The notes under the pieces: generated by a model
Databases searched by the model: none
Told to the model about the DNA's origin: nothing
What the model saw: the letters and a program-made list of their open reading frames with translations, nothing else
Program-made: the position numbers and the translations under genes
Assembly (NCBI GenBank): GCA_026390435.1
Contig: JAPLFY010000031.1
Location: 184,614-248,613 of the forward strand
DNA length: 64,000 bases
Direction: 5' to 3'
Origin: Pseudomonadota bacterium
Lineage (GTDB): Bacteria > Bdellovibrionota_B > Oligoflexia > Oligoflexales > CAIYRB01
Shown here: positions 33,711-42,033 of the stretch, piece after piece
Layout: each line of letters starts with the position of its first letter
How positions within the stretch are numbered: position 1 is the first letter of the stretch

Positions 33711-33822
33711 ATATTCTCCTAGGTAGACAGAATTATAAGTTTATTTGCATTATATTGTCAAAGGTCGACGGGCCTACATCGGCTCCGCCGCTTGCTTCCT
33801 TAACCATTACCGCGAGGCCATC

Positions 33823-36474
33823 TTGTCGCAACTCAAACGCCTCTTTGTCATCGACACTATGGCTCTTGCGTTCCGCAGCTTTTATGCTCTCGGTCGCAGC
33901 TCTCTCACTACGAACAGCGGCTTGCCAACCGGCGCCATTTACGGCTCCGCTCTTTTTATGCATAAGTTGCTAAGCGAGCAACAACCAGATTATCTCTTGG
34001 CAGTCACCGATACTCCCGAACCAACATTCCGGCACCAGCGTTACCCTGCGTATAAAGCTAATCGGGGCGAAATGCCCGAAGATCTCTCTCAGCAGATTCC
34101 CTACATTTTTTGTCTTTTGCAGCATCTTCGCTGCCCTTTACTCAAAGTGCCCGGAGTTGAGGCCGATGATGTCATAGGGACTGTTGCTAAGCGTTTCGCT
34201 GGTCCTGACCTCGCAGTCTACATAGTCTCAGGTGACAAAGACTTTATGCAGATTGTCGATGATCGAATTTTGATGTTCGTCCCTAAAAAGAACGAAGACG
34301 CCATCATCGTCGATCCAGCCGCTGTTCGCGAGCGCTTTCACTGTACGCCAGATCAAGTGATCGATGTCCTGGCCCTAATCGGAGATGCCGTAGACAACGT
34401 CCCTGGCGTCCACGGAATAGGAGAAAAAGGGGCAGCTAAGTTAATCGAGACTTACGGCTCCTTGTCCGGCATTTACGAGCGCCTTGATGAGATTAGTGCG
34501 AAGAAGCAGCGCGAAGCCTTAATTGCTGATCGGGAAAATGCCTTTCTGTCACGAGAGCTCGTCACTCTTAAAACAGATTTAGACCTTCCGATCAGCCTCG
34601 ACCAAACAATTTGTCATTGGCAGCAATCGGCCGCAAATCCGGAATTACTTAGCTTTTATCAAGAGCTAGGTTTTAAGTCCCTAAGCCAAAAAGTAAAGTC
34701 GGTGCTCGGAGAGTCCGCCCTGGCCTCTACCCCAGAATCACAGCTGATTCATCATTCAGCACTGTCATTCACCGAAGTGCTAGACGACGATACTGCTCAA
34801 AAACTCTATGATGCGGCGGCATCAGCGCGCGAAATCTTCATCACTGTCGCTACTTCAGGATCTGATGTGGTCGCTGACAAGGCGATAAATCTCGCACTGA
34901 TCACCGATCTGGGAAACGCTTTTCAACTGCCTCTCAGCGAGGCAGGAATATACTATGCACGCCAAATTTTATCTGGGTCAGCAACCAAAGTAGCGCATGG
35001 ATGGAAGCTAGCGATTGAGATGCTGCTCAATATCGGCATTGATGTCAAAGCACCGTACGTTGATTTGGAAATCTGTGACTACTTGATCGACCCAAATCAC
35101 TACGACCATGGCCTAAATTCTTTAGCCCAGCGCTATTTGGATAGGTCGGAACTTCCCAATACTCTAATGGAACAAACAGTCTTACTATCTGAGCTACATA
35201 AAGTTATCGCACCGCGGATCAATGAACTCAGTCTAAATCACGTGCTCTCCGTCATCGAAATGCCCTTAGTGCCAGTACTAGCAGACATGGAACGCACGGG
35301 TGTATTTATCGATGCTGAATACCTAGCAAGCTACTCTGACGAGCTCTCCATCGTGGCTAAGACTCTCGAAGAACAAATCTACGAGTCCGCTGGCGGAGCC
35401 TTTAATATTAACTCCTCGAAACAGCTGCAGGAATTACTCTACACCAGGCTTAAGCTGCACGAGCTTGCAGGCTTGAAACGGCTGAAGAAGACTAAGACCG
35501 GATTTTCCACGGATGAATCTGTGCTTTCCCAACTGGCGCCGTCTCACCCGATTCCAGACCTCATCCTTCAATACCGGACAGTCACCAAACTTAAGAGCAC
35601 GTATGTAGACGCGCTACCACAATTCTTAAATGCCCGCTCTCACCGGATTCATACCCACTTTAATCAAACGGTGGCTGCGACCGGACGACTCAGCTCAGAT
35701 AAACCAAACCTACAAAATATACCGAATCAATCACCCCTTGGTCGCCGCATCAGAAAAGCCTTCAAACCACCCGAGGCTGATGCCGTATTAATCTCTGCCG
35801 ATTATTCACAAGTTGAAATTCGCCTACTTGCGCACTTAGCAGAGGCGACCGATCTAATCGCAGCATTCAAGCTGGGCCTGGACGTGCACCGCGTCACGGC
35901 CGCCAAGATTTTCGGTATTCCGGAGGCAGACGTCAGCTCGGAACTTCGCTCACAAGCCAAAGCCGTCAACTTTGGTATTATTTATGGCATGGGGCCGCAG
36001 CGGCTGGCGGCACAAACGGGAGTCACACTCGCTGCAGCCAAGGACTTTATCAGCCGATACTTTGAAGTATATCCGGGCATCAAAAGCTATACGGCAGAGC
36101 TGGTAAAGAGCGCGCGGGCCACCGGCTACTGCGTCACCATGTTTGGTCGCCGTCGACCTATCCCCGAGCTTCGCGATGGCAACCAAGCCATCCAAAACAG
36201 AGGAGAAAACATCGCCGTTAACGCCCCCATACAGGGCAGTGCTGCCGACCTTATCAAACTAGCCATGATTAAAGTCCATCACGCTCTGAAGGCACATCGG
36301 CTTCAGACCAAAATGCTGTTGCAAGTGCATGACGAACTGGTGTTCAGCGCTCCTGAGTCCGAGGTCGAGGCAGTTGTGCCAATGATCCGTGACTGCATGG
36401 AGAACGCAATCACCACCCGAGTCCCGCTGAAAGTTGATATCAGCTGGGGTCCCGACTGGTTAGCAGCACACTAG
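33823..36474 (+). CDS. polA: DNA polymerase I
   Basis: Motif A ISADYSQVEIRLLAH, motif B RSQAKAVNFGIIYGMG, motif C QVHDELVF, plus an N-terminal 5'-nuclease. The ORF track starts at TTG 33745. TTG 33823 has a GAGG SD and gives MSQLKRLFVID. Confidence 0.95.
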   Translation: MSQLKRLFVIDTMALAFRSFYALGRSSLTTNSGLPTGAIYGSALFMHKLLSEQQPDYLLAVTDTPEPTFRHQRYPAYKANRGEMPEDLSQQIPYIFCLLQHLRCPLLKVPGVEADDVIGTVAKRFAGPDLAVYIVSGDKDFMQIVDDRILMFVPKKNEDAIIVDPAAVRERFHCTPDQVIDVLALIGDAVDNVPGVHGIGEKGAAKLIETYGSLSGIYERLDEISAKKQREALIADRENAFLSRELVTLKTDLDLPISLDQTICHWQQSAANPELLSFYQELGFKSLSQKVKSVLGESALASTPESQLIHHSALSFTEVLDDDTAQKLYDAAASAREIFITVATSGSDVVADKAINLALITDLGNAFQLPLSEAGIYYARQILSGSATKVAHGWKLAIEMLLNIGIDVKAPYVDLEICDYLIDPNHYDHGLNSLAQRYLDRSELPNTLMEQTVLLSELHKVIAPRINELSLNHVLSVIEMPLVPVLADMERTGVFIDAEYLASYSDELSIVAKTLEEQIYESAGGAFNINSSKQLQELLYTRLKLHELAGLKRLKKTKTGFSTDESVLSQLAPSHPIPDLILQYRTVTKLKSTYVDALPQFLNARSHRIHTHFNQTVAATGRLSSDKPNLQNIPNQSPLGRRIRKAFKPPEADAVLISADYSQVEIRLLAHLAEATDLIAAFKLGLDVHRVTAAKIFGIPEADVSSELRSQAKAVNFGIIYGMGPQRLAAQTGVTLAAAKDFISRYFEVYPGIKSYTAELVKSARATGYCVTMFGRRRPIPELRDGNQAIQNRGENIAVNAPIQGSAADLIKLAMIKVHHALKAHRLQTKMLLQVHDELVFSAPESEVEAVVPMIRDCMENAITTRVPLKVDISWGPDWLAAH

Positions 36475-36496: not shown

Positions 36497-37438
36497 CTAA
36501 TTAACCTGATGCAAGAAAGCCAGGTCCAGACCTGCCGATTGCTCAATTGCTGAGAGCGATGTTTTGAAACGCTCCCAATCAGACTCCATGCTTCGCGCGC
36601 TTAGCGATTCAGTAAAACCATGCGAGTCTTCACATGCCTGTTCGTGGTCGGTAATGGGGTCCGTGCCGTTCGATGTCACGTTTGGCATCAGAACCGAGGC
36701 TATCACCTGCGGCCTGCCGTTTTTGTTCATCTTGAAGACGATCTTGAAATTGTGCGACGGCACATCAATGTCATTGTCAGGTCCGATGTGCCCTGGGTCT
36801 TCGGCGAAAACTGGACCGGCTACAATGTAGAGAGTGTCATTCGTACCGCGCACTAAATTGCGCGCATGATGTTCGAGGTGTTGCCAGGAAACCCGATTAA
36901 GGTTGGCCGTCTGCGGCATCATGTTAGACATCAGAAACGTCTGACTATTGTCTGACACGCTCAGTGTCCGGTCAGCTGACGGAATCAAGTGGCCACGATC
37001 GAAACAACTGCCCTGGTACTCTTCAGGCTCGACTGCTCGGCCGACTCCGCGCTGATGCAAGTGCCTTTCCAGTTCAGGATCGACAGCGAAGTTATTTTGC
37101 CTTTGGACATTGCCCATGTCCGCACTGCTAAGTCGCCAAGCGACATAGTTTGGCTGCCGATGCTGATGGTTCCAGGAAATGACATACTGCTTGCGAGAGA
37201 TCAAAACTTCTGGAGAGCTGCTGACCGAAGGAATACCCACCCCGACGTTTGGGTTGCTGTCGAGAGGCAGATCACCGATGAGTTTACTAATGCTGGCGGT
37301 TGAGGTCGGGAAGGCTTTCGGGTCGGCTTTACCGGTCGCTAGGCGACTTACGGAGCCATTTTGACCACATGCGATGCTAAGTCCCAAAATAAAGCTACAA
37401 CAAGCACGCTGTAGGCAACAGAGAACCCGGGCATCCAT
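36497..37438 (-). CDS. secreted/lipoprotein DNA/RNA non-specific endonuclease (beta-beta-alpha-Me, DRGH family)
   Basis: 313 aa. Lipobox LSIAC. Active-site FDRGHLIPSADR. Confidence 0.8.
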   Translation of the reverse strand: MDARVLCCLQRACCSFILGLSIACGQNGSVSRLATGKADPKAFPTSTASISKLIGDLPLDSNPNVGVGIPSVSSSPEVLISRKQYVISWNHQHRQPNYVAWRLSSADMGNVQRQNNFAVDPELERHLHQRGVGRAVEPEEYQGSCFDRGHLIPSADRTLSVSDNSQTFLMSNMMPQTANLNRVSWQHLEHHARNLVRGTNDTLYIVAGPVFAEDPGHIGPDNDIDVPSHNFKIVFKMNKNGRPQVIASVLMPNVTSNGTDPITDHEQACEDSHGFTESLSARSMESDWERFKTSLSAIEQSAGLDLAFLHQVN

Positions 37439-37599
37439 AGCACCTCCGAAAAATTTGGAGTGATGATGTCGTCCGACGACCTATCAAAGGTGTAGCATTT
37501 ATCTTGGCTAACCGTCCAGAGTGCGGCTCCCTAAACCAACAGAATTTTATGTTAAATTTATTTTAATCGGGATTTTGCCGAGGGCGACCAACCCGCAAA

Positions 37600-38370
37600 T
37601 TAAGCCAACTCAAGGACCACAGGTGCGTGATCAGAGGGCTTTTCGCCCTTGCGCTCATCCCGATCGACGTAGCATCGGCCGAACTGCTCGCACACCGGCA
37701 GGCTGGCGAGCAACAGGTCAATCCGCAGGCCGTGGTTCTTTTGGAACCCTAACATACGGTAATCCCACCAAGTAAATGCGGTCTCCTGGGGGTGGAGGTG
37801 ACGGTATGCATCAACCAGACCAAGGTCCATGGTGGCGGCAAGTGCGGCCCGCTCGCGCTCCGAGCACAAGATCTTACCCTCCCACTGAGCTGCGTCATGG
37901 GTATCCATAGGCCGCGGTGCGATATTGAAGTCACCGGCCAGGATCATCCGATCAGTCGGCCGATGGTGCTCCTGGAGGTAGCGCTGCATCCTAGATAACC
38001 AGTTGAGTTTATAGAAGTATTTATCAGACCCTACAGCTTGGCCGTTAGGCACATAGGCCGACATCACGGTTAAATCGCCAAAACGCCCACTAATAAACCT
38101 CGCTTGAGGGTCGTCAACACCGTCACCAAATCCGCGGACGACACCCTCTGCCGGCCTACGGCTAAGTAGTGCGACTCCATTGAAGGCCTTCTGGCCATAG
38201 ACGGCGGCATGATAGCCGGCGGCCTCCACCTCGGCGAAGGGAAAGCTTTCATCCACACACTTTAGCTCCTGCAAGCAAATCACATCAGGTGCCATCCGCT
38301 CAAGAAGGGCAAGCAAGCGAGACAGACGCTGACCAACAGAGTTAACGTTCCAAGTGACGATTTTTTGCAT
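37600..38370 (-). CDS. xthA: exodeoxyribonuclease III
   Basis: 256 aa. MQKIVTWNVNS start, CLQELK, C-terminal SDHAPVVLEL. Confidence 0.9.
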   Translation of the reverse strand: MQKIVTWNVNSVGQRLSRLLALLERMAPDVICLQELKCVDESFPFAEVEAAGYHAAVYGQKAFNGVALLSRRPAEGVVRGFGDGVDDPQARFISGRFGDLTVMSAYVPNGQAVGSDKYFYKLNWLSRMQRYLQEHHRPTDRMILAGDFNIAPRPMDTHDAAQWEGKILCSERERAALAATMDLGLVDAYRHLHPQETAFTWWDYRMLGFQKNHGLRIDLLLASLPVCEQFGRCYVDRDERKGEKPSDHAPVVLELA

Positions 38371-38409
38371 GGGCAGAACCTAAGCGCTACGGGTTAAGCT
38401 ATCGGTACT

Positions 38410-38456
38410 AGTTTCAGTTCAAAGGGTTCGGAGCTGCTCACAGTTTCATAGTTGAA
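38410..38456 (+). repeat. subterminal direct repeats in IS left end (candidate TnpA binding sites)
   Basis: AGTTTCAGTTCAA (38410-38422) and AGTTTCATAGTTGAA (38442-38456), 32 bp apart. Confidence 0.6.
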
Positions 38457-38486
38457 TATTATTATTTATAGTCATATATATCAATA

Positions 38487-39059
38487 ATGAAGCTTTCCGT
38501 TTGGGCAAAATCGAAAGGGATCTCTTATCAGACTGCATGGCGTATGTGGCAGCAAGGCAAGCTACCTTTGCCAGCCACACAGCTGCCAACTGGCACCATT
38601 ATCGTTGAGCAAAATGTCGCCCCAAGCCCTGGAGCGGTAGCGATTTATGCGCGAGTAAGTTCTCATGACCAGAAGACTGATCTTGAGCGCCAAGTCGGTC
38701 GCTTGACTAGTTATGCCGTCGGCAGACAATTGCCGGTTACCGCTGTCATCACGGAAGTTGCCTCGGGTTTAAACGGTAGACGGCCGCGACTGCTGAAATT
38801 GCTAGCTGATCCAACCATCGAGTTTATTATCGTTGAGCATCGCGAGCGGCTCGGCCGCTTCGCCTTCGAGTATATTGAGATGTCACTGGCATCCGCGGGA
38901 CGAAAGCTTATAGTGGTCGACGAACAAGAAATCGACGACGATTTAGTTCAAGACATGGTCGATATCCTGACGAGTTTTTGTGCGCGGTTATACGGGCGTC
39001 GCGGTGCTAAACATCGTGCCCATAAAGCGGCCACTGCCGCAGCGGATGCAGATCCTTGA
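38487..39059 (+). CDS. tnpA: IS607-family serine recombinase/transposase TnpA
   Basis: 190 aa. N-terminal MerR-like HTH (GISYQTAWRMWQQGKLP). Catalytic IYARVSSHDQ. Resolvase-like core. Confidence 0.9.
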   Translation: MKLSVWAKSKGISYQTAWRMWQQGKLPLPATQLPTGTIIVEQNVAPSPGAVAIYARVSSHDQKTDLERQVGRLTSYAVGRQLPVTAVITEVASGLNGRRPRLLKLLADPTIEFIIVEHRERLGRFAFEYIEMSLASAGRKLIVVDEQEIDDDLVQDMVDILTSFCARLYGRRGAKHRAHKAATAAADADP

Positions 39060-40279
39060 TTATTGCTCATAAGATTGCTCTGAAGCTCAACGTGCAGCAG
39101 CGCATCTACTGCGCCCGTGGTGCTGGTACCGCTAGGTTCGCGTGGAACTGGGCGCTGCATGAGTGGAAGCAAAGCTACGAGGCCGGTGAAAAAGTGAGTG
39201 AAGCCGGCCTTCGCAAAAGGCTTAATGCGATTAAGCGCGAGCAATTCCCGTGGATGTTTGAGGTCACTAAGGTGGCACCTCAGCAAGCTATTAAAAATCT
39301 CGGGACGGCATTCACGCGATTTTTTACGGGCAAATCCCAATACCCACAACCCAAGCGCAAAGGCCAGCACGACAGTTTTAGGGCGGACAACGGCCCGGGT
39401 ACCTTCGCCGTGGTCGGACGGCGTCTTAAGTTGCCAGTCGTCGGTGTCATCAAGATGCGCGAGGAGCTGCGCTTTAGCGGTAAACCAATATCCGTTACCA
39501 TTTCACGCGAAGCCGACCGATGGTTTGCCGCCATTGCGGTGGAAGTTGCCATGGACATTGCCATGGAAGTCGAGCACACCACGCAGACCAGTGAAAATCA
39601 AGCTGTCTGCGGTGTCGATCTCGGTATTAGTCGGCTTGCGACCATTAGTGACGGTACCATCTATCAAGCAACCCATGCGTTGAGACGGGAGATTCGGAAA
39701 CTTAGGCGAGGCTCACGGCGCCTGAGCCGCAAGCAAAAGGGGTCCAAAAATCGAGACAAGGCAAAGCACCGGCTGGCAAAGCTGCACGCAAGAATTGTCC
39801 ACGTCAGACGCGACAGCCTGCATAAATTGACTACTGATCTAACGCGACGATTTGCCACCGTCGTCATCGAAGACTTGAACGTTAAGGGGATGATGGCAAA
39901 CCGCAAATTAGCTCGCGCCATCGCTGACGTCGGGATGTATGAGTTTCGCAGGCAGCTCAGTTACAAGGCCGAGATGCGGGGCGTTAGGGTTGTGGTTGCA
40001 GATCGCTTCTTTCCGTCGTCACAGCTGTGTTCGACCCCGGGCTGCGAGGGGCGCGCCGTCGGCTTAGGGCTGGCAGTGCGCAGTTGGACCTGCAACTTCT
40101 GCAACGCCACCCATGACCGTGATCTCAATGCAGCAAAGAATTTGGAACGCTATAGTACGGTGAGTTCCACCGGAATTAACGCCTGCGGAGCTGGGAGTTC
40201 CGTCGCACCTGGGCAACTAGGCAGACGTAGCCCAGCGCTGAAGCAGGAATCTAATGTAGTAATAAATGACTATACTTAG
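39056..40279 (+). CDS. tnpB: TnpB (RuvC-type RNA-guided endonuclease, OMEGA family)
   Basis: 407 aa. RuvC I GVDLGISR, RuvC II VVIEDLN, RuvC III HDRDLNAAKN. Zinc finger CSTPGC...CNFC. TTG start overlaps the tnpA stop (TTGA). Confidence 0.9.
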   Translation: MIIAHKIALKLNVQQRIYCARGAGTARFAWNWALHEWKQSYEAGEKVSEAGLRKRLNAIKREQFPWMFEVTKVAPQQAIKNLGTAFTRFFTGKSQYPQPKRKGQHDSFRADNGPGTFAVVGRRLKLPVVGVIKMREELRFSGKPISVTISREADRWFAAIAVEVAMDIAMEVEHTTQTSENQAVCGVDLGISRLATISDGTIYQATHALRREIRKLRRGSRRLSRKQKGSKNRDKAKHRLAKLHARIVHVRRDSLHKLTTDLTRRFATVVIEDLNVKGMMANRKLARAIADVGMYEFRRQLSYKAEMRGVRVVVADRFFPSSQLCSTPGCEGRAVGLGLAVRSWTCNFCNATHDRDLNAAKNLERYSTVSSTGINACGAGSSVAPGQLGRRSPALKQESNVVINDYT

Positions 40280-40345
40280 AGGAACGGTTTTCCACTACAG
40301 TAAGGACGGCCTAACGTTGTCGCTTAATGGCCGATTAGGGAAGGA
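40120..40345 (+). ncRNA. putative TnpB omega RNA (reRNA) scaffold - predicted, extent uncertain
   Basis: Location inferred from characterised TnpB loci (3' end of tnpB through the right end). Nested stem-loop at 40190-40236 and hairpin at 40307-40333 read from the sequence. Confidence 0.3.
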
Positions 40346-40351
40346 TTTTCT

Positions 40352-40771
40352 ATGTTCGGGGTAGGCTTTTTTGAGCTAGTCATCATCGCTGTGGTAGCGC
40401 TGGTCGTAGTCGGGCCAAAGCGCCTACCGGAAGTCATGCGTCAGGCCGGGCGGATGTTTGTCCACCTGCGCCGTACAGCAAATGACGTGCGCTCGACCTT
40501 CGAACAGGTCATCCGAGACGCCGAGGACGACATGCGGCGCGAAGAGGCCCAGTCAATCCGCGAATCATTGCAGCCTGTTGTAGACGCGCGCAACGATGTC
40601 CATAAACTTCTCACAGACCAACACACTCCATCAGCAAGCAGTGGCGACATGACGCAGCCTGCGACTGAGCAACAACCGTCAGCAGCACCAGCGCCTGAAC
40701 TGCAACCGGATGGCGCAAAACCTTACAATCCGAATAACCCAGGCGAACAGAGCCCCAGTCAAAAAAGTTAA
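40352..40771 (+). CDS. tatB: twin-arginine translocase subunit TatB
   Basis: 139 aa. MFGVGFFELVIIAVVALVVVGPKRLPEV (the GPxRLP signature of TatB), followed by an amphipathic helix and an acidic/Pro tail. Confidence 0.8.
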   Translation: MFGVGFFELVIIAVVALVVVGPKRLPEVMRQAGRMFVHLRRTANDVRSTFEQVIRDAEDDMRREEAQSIRESLQPVVDARNDVHKLLTDQHTPSASSGDMTQPATEQQPSAAPAPELQPDGAKPYNPNNPGEQSPSQKS

Positions 40772-40776
40772 TAGCC

Positions 40777-42033
40777 GTGGATCAATTTCAGCTACGAGAT
40801 GGCAGCTACCACTGTGACTCATTGCCCCTCAATGACCTAGGCCAGTCCGTAGGCACGCCGGCCTACATATACTCGAAGCAGATGTTGGAGGAGCACTGCT
40901 CGGCTCTTCTTGACGCCTTCAAAAACTATCCGACAGATGCCTGCTTTGCCGTGAAGTCGCTAAGTAACCTATCCATACTCAAGACTATTTTTGCAGCTGG
41001 ACTAGGGGCCGATCTAGTGTCAGCAGGCGAGCTTCAAAGGGCTCTCCTAGCAGGCGCTCCGACCAATCGCATCGTCTTCTCCGGTGTCGGCAAGCAAGAG
41101 GATGAGGTGCGCCAAGCTTTAAAAGCTGGAATCCTCATGTTCAATGTCGAGTCCCCTTTTGAGATCGACATGATTGCTGGCTTAGCTGCCGCTGCCAACA
41201 AGACAGCGGCGATCAGCCTGCGGATCAATCCGAATATCGATGCCCAAACCAATGCAAAAATCACGACCGGTCTTTATTCAACCAAATTTGGCCTCACCGA
41301 AACCGACCTACCCGATCTCCTGAACCGAATCCGTAGTCAACCAAGCCTGCAACTGGTCGGCCTAGCCTGCCACATAGGTAGCCAAATACTGGATCTAGCG
41401 CCGCTGAAAGAGGCCGCTCAGCAGATGGCCTCCCTATCTAAACATGTAAGGGAGCTTGGCTTCGACCTCCGCTATCTAAACATGGGAGGGGGCCTAGGAA
41501 TCCGCTACAGCAACGAAGAGCCACCTAGCGTGACGAAGTATGCGGAGGCACTGATTCAAGGTGTGCGTCCAACCGGCCTGCGCCTCATCATTGAACCAGG
41601 ACGGTCACTTGTCGGTAATATTGGCGTATTGTTGACTCGAGTCATCAGCGTCAAAAAGACACCGGAACGACACTTTGTGGTGGTCGATGCCGCCATGAAC
41701 GATCTCATCAGACCCACACTCTATGAGTCTTACCATACGATCAGCGCAGTGAACGCCACGGCACCCAATGCACCAGCAGCGCTCTGCGATATTGTGGGGC
41801 CTATCTGTGAATCAGGGGACTTTCTGGGCAAAGATCGTCAGATGCCGCTTCCGGTGGCTGGCGAGCTGCTGATGGTCCGTGGCTGCGGAGCCTATGGGTC
41901 ATCAATGGCGTCTCAGTATAATAGCCGACCGCGCGCCCCTGAAGTTTTCGTCGACGGCGCCACGTTTCGCATCATTCGTCAGCGCGAGACACTAGAATCA
42001 CTATGGGCTAACGAACTTCCCGGCCTTCGTTGA
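40777..42033 (+). CDS. lysA: diaminopimelate decarboxylase
   Basis: 418 aa. PLP Lys in FAVKSLSN, plus GGGLGIRY, EPGRSLVGN and GPICESGD. Confidence 0.92.
   Translation: MDQFQLRDGSYHCDSLPLNDLGQSVGTPAYIYSKQMLEEHCSALLDAFKNYPTDACFAVKSLSNLSILKTIFAAGLGADLVSAGELQRALLAGAPTNRIVFSGVGKQEDEVRQALKAGILMFNVESPFEIDMIAGLAAAANKTAAISLRINPNIDAQTNAKITTGLYSTKFGLTETDLPDLLNRIRSQPSLQLVGLACHIGSQILDLAPLKEAAQQMASLSKHVRELGFDLRYLNMGGGLGIRYSNEEPPSVTKYAEALIQGVRPTGLRLIIEPGRSLVGNIGVLLTRVISVKKTPERHFVVVDAAMNDLIRPTLYESYHTISAVNATAPNAPAALCDIVGPICESGDFLGKDRQMPLPVAGELLMVRGCGAYGSSMASQYNSRPRAPEVFVDGATFRIIRQRETLESLWANELPGLR

Follow-up and report, generated by a model that had tools for sequence, protein, structure and literature searches.

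Two characterised IS607 systems offer the closest comparison for the element described here. ISXfa1, from Xylella fastidiosa, is an IS607 insertion sequence (IS) whose TnpB uses the target-adjacent motif (TAM) GGG, and in which a pseudoknot between the apical loop of a stem-loop and the bases just 5′ of the guide is functionally required (PMC10711439). The TnpB of CboIStron, from Clostridium botulinum, has the TAM TGGG; the right end of that element reads TCGG, with discrimination at position −3 (bioRxiv 10.1101/2023.11.20.567912). In both, ...CGG closes the RNA scaffold, the flanking sequence that comes next serves as the guide, and CGG spares the occupied site (PMC10711439; bioRxiv 10.1101/2023.11.20.567912). 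We analysed a 64,000-nucleotide (nt) stretch of contig JAPLFY010000031.1 (assembly GCA_026390435.1, positions 184,614 to 248,613, forward strand; hereafter the window, whose own numbering is used throughout) and a TnpB-encoding element that lies in it between xthA and tatB. A first-pass annotation, made from the letters alone, had called this an intact IS607 element with a catalytically complete TnpB, and had described IS607-linked TnpBs as less characterised than those of IS200/IS605 elements. The first statement agrees with family models, an alignment to ISDra2 TnpB and empty sites in relatives; the second is, given the two systems above, now only partly true. On present evidence the element is very probably a structurally intact, recently inserted IS607-family IS with a guide-RNA-encoding TnpB.

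The element occupies a site that is empty in sister strains

An exact look-up of the TatB protein listed ten places, nine of them unoccupied and the tenth the occupied allele itself, from sample SRR20698647. The nine are contigs of sister strains of the same species, with an identical TatB and flanks 99% identical to the window, and in each the xthA–tatB spacer is 120 bp long and lacks the element. Across the insertion point these contigs read ...AGTTTCAGTTCAAA-GGG-TTTTCCACTACAGTAAGAACGG... (that is, ...TTCAAA-GGG-TTTTCCACTAC...; the same site is also given as ...TTCAAAGGGTTTTCC... and AAAGGGTTTTCC, with the joint TTCAAAGGGTTTTCCAC), whereas the occupied site reads AAAG-GG-TTCGG...GGAAC-GG-TTTT. 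Relative to the empty sequence AAAGGGTTTT, insertion at 5′-AGGG|TTTT-3′ has added a net 1861 bp, with GG at each junction and no host bases duplicated or lost, the signature of an IS607-type serine-recombinase insertion (PMC10711439; bioRxiv 10.1101/2023.11.20.567912). The 99% identity of the flanks marks the insertion as recent, and the presence of empty alleles shows it to be polymorphic. A more distant relative, whose XthA is 72% identical, keeps the order of genes seen here (sodB-lysA-tatB-xthA-nuclease-polA); its spacer, about 100 bp long, also lacks the element and carries GG at the aligned insertion point. The earlier suggestion that related genomes might reveal an empty xthA–tatB spacer was thus borne out.

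The ends of the element were set by comparison with at least seven independent copies of close relatives in unrelated flanks. In blastn alignments to these copies, similarity begins at 38424 and ends at 40287, give or take at most two bases every time, and every copy compared opens with GGGTT... and closes with ...AACGG. The element therefore spans 38424 (or 38427, if the GGG is counted as target) to 40287, and the ends first proposed, 38400 and 40345, overshoot by 24 and 58 nt. An alternative boundary, LF|GG with R at −1, was dropped, since the true empty sites assign GGG to the target.

Two repeats had been described at the ends. The first copy of a left-end direct repeat (AGTTTCAGTTCAA, 38410–38422) is host spacer DNA outside the element, as it is present in the sister empty sites and in the more distant relative. 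The 9-bp inverted match between the two ends (TATAGTCAT in the left end and ATGACTATA at 40266–40274) does exist and is kept in close relatives, with 7 of 9 positions retained in a clade whose TnpB is 68% identical; the same region, however, holds 31 inverted pairs of similar size, so the pair alone is within chance. It may be a TnpA binding motif.

Related copies, which the first-pass annotation had proposed to seek, occur in many different genomic contexts. The close relatives (TnpB 84–93% identical) lie on contigs with entirely different flanks, and a second clade stands at 68% identity. For the host lineage itself, the nearest relatives in public data are metagenome bins that carry the label Deltaproteobacteria or Pseudomonadota. 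When the whole element was searched by blastn against a plasmid collection, only short matches of 60–80% inside other tnpB or tnpA genes were returned; it is thus not a known plasmid-borne IS. A transfer-RNA (tRNA) scan of the window found no tRNA, and the element is accordingly not a tRNA-targeted island.

Three observations on individual contigs are recorded separately. Contig L166 (ERR11561443; XthA 97% identical) matches window 38371–38423 with its positions 1–53 and ends at the base before GGG; simple de Bruijn-graph logic (a mix of occupied and empty alleles, or a multi-copy IS) does not explain this break, and it was not used as evidence. Among the 68%-identity relatives, contig L089 combines the left flank of L088 and L113 with the right flank of L090. 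It is either an assembly that joins two copies or a recombinant of two copies, and in either case several copies are present in that population. Finally, of two contigs assembled independently from SRR20698647 (L001 and L002), one stops after the first 82 codons of tnpA and the other begins 116 codons before its stop, a break that points to variation in the sequence, or to another tnpA-like copy, within that sample.

A serine recombinase and a canonical TnpB

The two open reading frames (ORFs) are as first annotated, encoding 190 and 407 amino acids (aa). TnpA scored 189.9 bits against the IS607 transposase model NF033518 (transpos_IS607; cut-off 110) over residues 5–177, and matched Pfam Resolvase over residues 51–182. 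Its catalytic domain aligned without gaps to that of IS1535 TnpA (PDB 6DGB) over 135 residues (E=5e-47), with the catalytic Ser58 in the motif YARVSSHDQ. The serine-recombinase motif noted earlier therefore stands, but the MerR-like helix–turn–helix (HTH) assigned with it has no Pfam match of its own: a scan of the N-terminal 59 aa returned no hit even at E<=5, and only the full-length IS607 TnpA profile covers this part. An exact-sequence look-up showed that this TnpA is not on record, so identical copies cannot be found by that route.

The tnpA stop overlaps the tnpB start in the sequence TTGA (39056–39059). An NTGA overlap was kept in all 15 family members inspected, which suggests translational coupling of tnpA and tnpB. 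The TTGA form recurs in four of the five closest copies, and a TTG start is typical of the closest clade.

TnpB contains the Pfam domains HTH_OrfB_IS605, OrfB_IS605 and Cas12f1-like_TNB, and scored 299.2 bits against the NCBIfam model guided_TnpB (cut-off 100). It aligned over its full length to ISDra2 TnpB (8BF8/8EXA; E=7e-59), and the RuvC residues D188, E272 and D356 fell on ISDra2 D191, E278 and D361, exactly as the acidic residues had been assigned from the sequence. In an alignment of 81 homologues these three positions are invariant or at least 90% conserved. The four cysteines of the zinc finger (C325/C330...C346/C349) are conserved too. The spacing first given for that finger needs amending, since the first pair, CSTPGC, is Cx4C in this clade and CxxC in more distant relatives; ISDra2 C334 aligned to a proline of this TnpB. 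An AlphaFold model built from the 81 sequences had a mean predicted local distance difference test (pLDDT) score of 83.8 and was poor only at residues 167–177 and in the C-terminal tail (371–407), whose coding DNA doubles as the guide-RNA region. By the features tested, the element belongs to the IS607 family, and its TnpB is a canonical one, close to the ISDra2 type. Among solved structures, TnpB matched best, ahead of ISDra2 TnpB, a protein that does not occur in nature and is entered as 'AI-designed RNA-guided nuclease' (9yyg/9yyh; E=7.6e-69).

A conserved RNA scaffold precedes the predicted flank-derived guide

The DNA at the 3′ end of tnpB is almost invariant among copies whose TnpB proteins are only 68–93% identical. 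A covariance model (R1) built from nine copies found 60 matches, each at the tnpB 3′ end of a related locus, and a single match in the window. RNAalifold, applied to the alignment trimmed to 136 nt, folded this region into three stem-loops (SL1–SL3). Across 54 distinct sequences, 92.9% of cells were paired, compared with at most 45% when the partners were slid; compensatory changes occurred in 27 of 31 pairs, and none of 500 shuffles reached the observed score. The alignment was fitted to the covariance model and so favours the structure somewhat, by an amount that is small beside this margin. The SL1 loop can also form a pseudoknot with the four bases that lead into the terminal GG; relatives carry double substitutions in two of its four pairs (UA to CG and CG to GC). 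Judged by this covariation, the 3′ 136 nt are a conserved RNA structure with a supported pseudoknot, which we take to be the scaffold of the guide RNA (omega RNA, also called right-end element RNA or reRNA).

Folding a 200-nt alignment with RNAalifold gave a long-range helix between 40117–40133 and 40270–40287. That alignment holds two clades only and does not separate the helix from SL3. The helix was dropped in favour of the local SL3, as SL3 was recovered on the trimmed alignment and its five outer pairs covary across the 54 relatives. Its inner stem shows a compensatory change, TAGT/ACTA to TGGT/ACCA, read by eye and unscored. An Rfam scan of 37000–42000 at E<=1 returned no match, to either a curated omega-RNA family or a group I intron.

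The first-pass annotation held that guide, TAM and ends could not be read directly from this copy; comparative data do allow all three to be deduced. By analogy with the characterised systems, we infer that the guide starts at 40288 (TTTTCCACTACAGTAAGG...), directly after the scaffold. Right flanks differ in every copy compared. The guide segment equals the empty site directly 3′ of GGG, apart from one difference in its first 20 nt, at position 18 (40305), where the occupied allele has G and all nine empty alleles have A, and it has no other match within the window. The sequence before the guide differs between the two states: AGGG stands directly 5′ of it in the empty site and ACGG in the right end. 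GGG or a longer run of G precedes the left end in 31 of 36 independent family insertions, and the right end reads (G/C)A(A/G)CGG in 54 of 60 family members. The TAM is by the same analogy most likely (R)GGG, and the family data support the generality of the GGG-versus-CGG rule for telling self from non-self that was published for the two other IS607 systems. RNA-guided, TAM-dependent cleavage by this TnpB is predicted from homology and from this site logic.

Flanking genes

Both neighbours of the element, xthA and tatB, are housekeeping genes and pass curated equivalog models. With the element in place, tatB keeps only 67 nt of the original upstream spacer (120 bp, divergent) and xthA only 53 nt, and no terminator-like site was found 3′ of the right end (40288–40351). 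Given the shortened spacer and the lack of such a site, tnpB transcripts may extend into tatB, or the tatB promoter may be gone. Further out, the mechanically called ORFs of polA (33745–36474, 909 aa, TTG start) and lysA (40777–42033, 418 aa, GTG start) exceed the corresponding genes on sister contigs (883 and 383 aa), and the starts of these longest ORFs are probably not the true ones. The coordinates of all features are collected in Table 1.

Table 1. Features of the IS607-family element and its immediate flanks, in window coordinates.
Feature	Position	Strand	Basis or remark
xthA	37600–38370	−	Passes curated equivalog model
GGG, left junction	38424–38426	+	Target DNA in empty site; putative TAM
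Left crossover dinucleotide GG	38425–38426	+	Empty-site comparison
Left end (LE), non-coding, about 60 nt	38427–38486	+	A/T-rich; promoter-like hexamers; TATAGTCAT motif at 38467–38475
Promoter-like sites in left end	38437–38472
tnpA, IS607-type serine recombinase, 190 aa	38487–39059	+	NCBIfam NF033518, Pfam Resolvase, PDB 6DGB
Catalytic Ser58 codon	38658–38660		Motif YARVSSHDQ
tnpB, RNA-guided nuclease family, 407 aa, TTG start	39056–40279	+	Pfam, NCBIfam, ISDra2 alignment
In-frame 24-nt insertion, +8 aa (about residues 163–170)	39540–39563	+	Private to this copy
RuvC codon D188	39617–39619	+	ISDra2 alignment
RuvC codon E272	39869–39871	+	ISDra2 alignment
RuvC codon D356	40121–40123	+	ISDra2 alignment
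Guide-RNA (omega/reRNA) scaffold, 136 nt	40152–40287	+	Mostly inside tnpB 3′ end; ends ...AACGG
Stem-loop SL1	40158–40172	+	RNAalifold
Pseudoknot, GUUC (SL1 loop) with GAAC	40164–40167 with 40282–40285	+	Just 5′ of terminal GG
Stem-loop SL2	40182–40247	+	RNAalifold
Stem-loop SL3	40250–40280	+	RNAalifold
Right crossover dinucleotide GG	40286–40287	+	Last bases of element and scaffold; homology stops at 40287
Predicted guide segment, flank-derived, about 16–20 nt, TTTTCCACTACAGTAAGGAC	40288–40307	+	Equals empty site directly 3′ of GGG
tatB	40352–40771	+	Passes curated equivalog model

Discussion

Several points weigh against an intact, guide-encoding IS607 element. TnpB falls below the cut-offs of IS607_TnpB NF038280 (253.8 vs 350) and IS200_TnpB NF038281 (313.4 vs 425), so that, on profile scores, it is a TnpB outside both of these narrowly defined NCBIfam subgroups. 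Its start is a weak TTG codon, and its private 8-aa insertion may, judging from the structural model, alter its activity. Covariance-model and sequence searches found one copy of the element in the 64-kb window, and one of the ten listed contigs of the species is occupied; there is no sign of proliferation in the genome. The TAM was read from insertion sites, which reflect the target choice of TnpA as much as the specificity of TnpB. Finally, the steps of the mechanism set out below are taken from work published on ISXfa1 and CboIStron, and are predictions for this element.

The two points on the start codon and the insertion bear on the alternative that survives best, an IS607 copy that TnpA can still move but whose TnpB works poorly or not at all, so that RNA-guided retention is lost; we consider this improbable. 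The 24-nt insertion adds two imperfect repeats of a 12-nt unit, ATTGC(GG/CA)TGGAA, and is absent from all close relatives at both the protein and the DNA level. In the model, the added residues sit between the last WED strand and RuvC strand 1, directly before the strand that carries D188, and adjoin the low-confidence segment at 167–177. However, the insertion keeps the reading frame, the linker that contains it differs in length across the family (81-sequence alignment, 582 columns), pLDDT in the rest of the model is above 90, and the catalytic and zinc-binding residues are all intact. The recurrence of the TTGA overlap among the closest copies likewise argues against the start codon as a defect.

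It is much less probable that the element became fixed long ago and survives as an immobile remnant, with its ORFs kept and its ability to move lost. Such a remnant would fit the single copy in the window, as well as a base-composition profile in which no compositional island appears and the element resembles its surroundings. It is contradicted by the presence/absence polymorphism at the exact site among the nine same-species contigs, and copies with 84–93% TnpB identity in unrelated flanks, together with the completeness of both ends, both ORFs and the RNA scaffold, speak against it as well. Least probable of all is an assembly artefact in which a multi-copy IS of the community was misjoined into the xthA–tatB spacer: metagenome chimeras do occur in this IS607 family, as in L089, and the Logan contigs of SRR20698647 break inside tnpA, but this independent assembly covers both junctions on its two contigs, one joining xthA to the left end and the 5′ part of tnpA and the other carrying the 3′ part of tnpA, tnpB and the right end into tatB, and the left and right junctions coincide with one and the same GG of the empty site, without gain or loss of a host base, which a chimera would not reproduce.

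If the element is, as we favour, an intact IS607-family IS with a guide-encoding TnpB, its cycle can be sketched by analogy. Crossover by TnpA between the terminal GG dinucleotides would release the element as a double-stranded circle and reseal the donor scarlessly, giving the joint AAAGGGTTTT in the donor and a predicted circle junction of ...GAGGAACGGTTCGGAGC... / TTAGAGGAACGGTTCGGAGCTGC. The circle would then integrate at another GG, preferably a GGG. Omega RNA would be processed from the tnpB transcript, its scaffold ending in ...AACGG and continuing into some 16–20 nt of flank as guide (UUUUCCACUACAGUAAGG...). Loaded with this RNA, TnpB would cut a resealed or naive empty site, (A)GGG + TTTTCCACTACAG..., the predicted targets being GGG-flanked TTTTCCACTACAGTAA, and the occupied site would be spared because its base at −3 is C (ACGG) and not G. 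Recombinational repair from an occupied copy would restore or spread the element.

A bolder proposal, which we advance only tentatively and regard as somewhat doubtful, is that the locus shows natural segregation of a homing-competent IS607 TnpB element that has only begun to spread in a population of uncultured bacteria. Alleles with and without the element are found side by side in flanks that are 99% identical, and the guide matches the empty allele at 17 of its first 18 positions beside GGG. If the proposal is true, existing metagenomes could be used to measure TnpB-driven retention and homing of a serine-recombinase IS in nature. A further effect is less likely: TnpB activity or tat expression might be altered by the 8 aa found only in this copy, or by the location of the element 64 nt 5′ of tatB. 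Whichever of these holds, the locus adds, from a poorly sampled uncultured lineage, an IS607-TnpB element with clear-cut ends, together with the predicted guide, the probable TAM, an RNA structure and a natural empty site, as well as a family-wide RNA model of 60 members. In practice it offers genome-editing screens one more compact TnpB (399–407 aa), whose probable TAM is simple and G-rich, and provides a population-level test case for homing.

Four known systems were compared with the element. IS1535 of Mycobacterium tuberculosis shares the TnpA catalytic domain with its YARVSSHD motif, in a comparison that covers the catalytic domain. With ISDra2 TnpB of Deinococcus radiodurans (an IS200/IS605 element; 8BF8, 8EXA, 8H1J) the present TnpB shares the domain order over the full length, the D/E/D triad and a C-terminal tail that overlaps the guide-RNA gene, here disordered in the model. 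Unlike the present element, ISDra2 has a Y1 tyrosine transposase, single-stranded transposition, a TTGAT TAM and a CxxC...CxxC zinc finger. CboIStron offers a closer parallel: its targets and right end (TGGG vs TCGG) correspond to (A/G)GGG vs ACGG here, and the scarless donor joint and a scaffold end of ...CGG would be common to both. In contrast to CboIStron, the insertion is intergenic and not within a gene, and Rfam found no group I intron; with no intron match and a left end of only about 60 nt, the element is not an IStron. With ISXfa1 the element shares a serine-recombinase TnpA beside TnpB, GG crossovers at both ends, a terminal GG in the reRNA scaffold, the probable GGG TAM, and a reRNA of several stem-loops with a pseudoknot, formed here by the GUUC and GAAC segments. 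It differs in host lineage, and the comparison is with ISXfa1 as published, with the TAM and RNA ends of the present element being those deduced above. By analogy, then, the element calls for no new mechanism and would work as ISXfa1 and CboIStron do, minus the intron.

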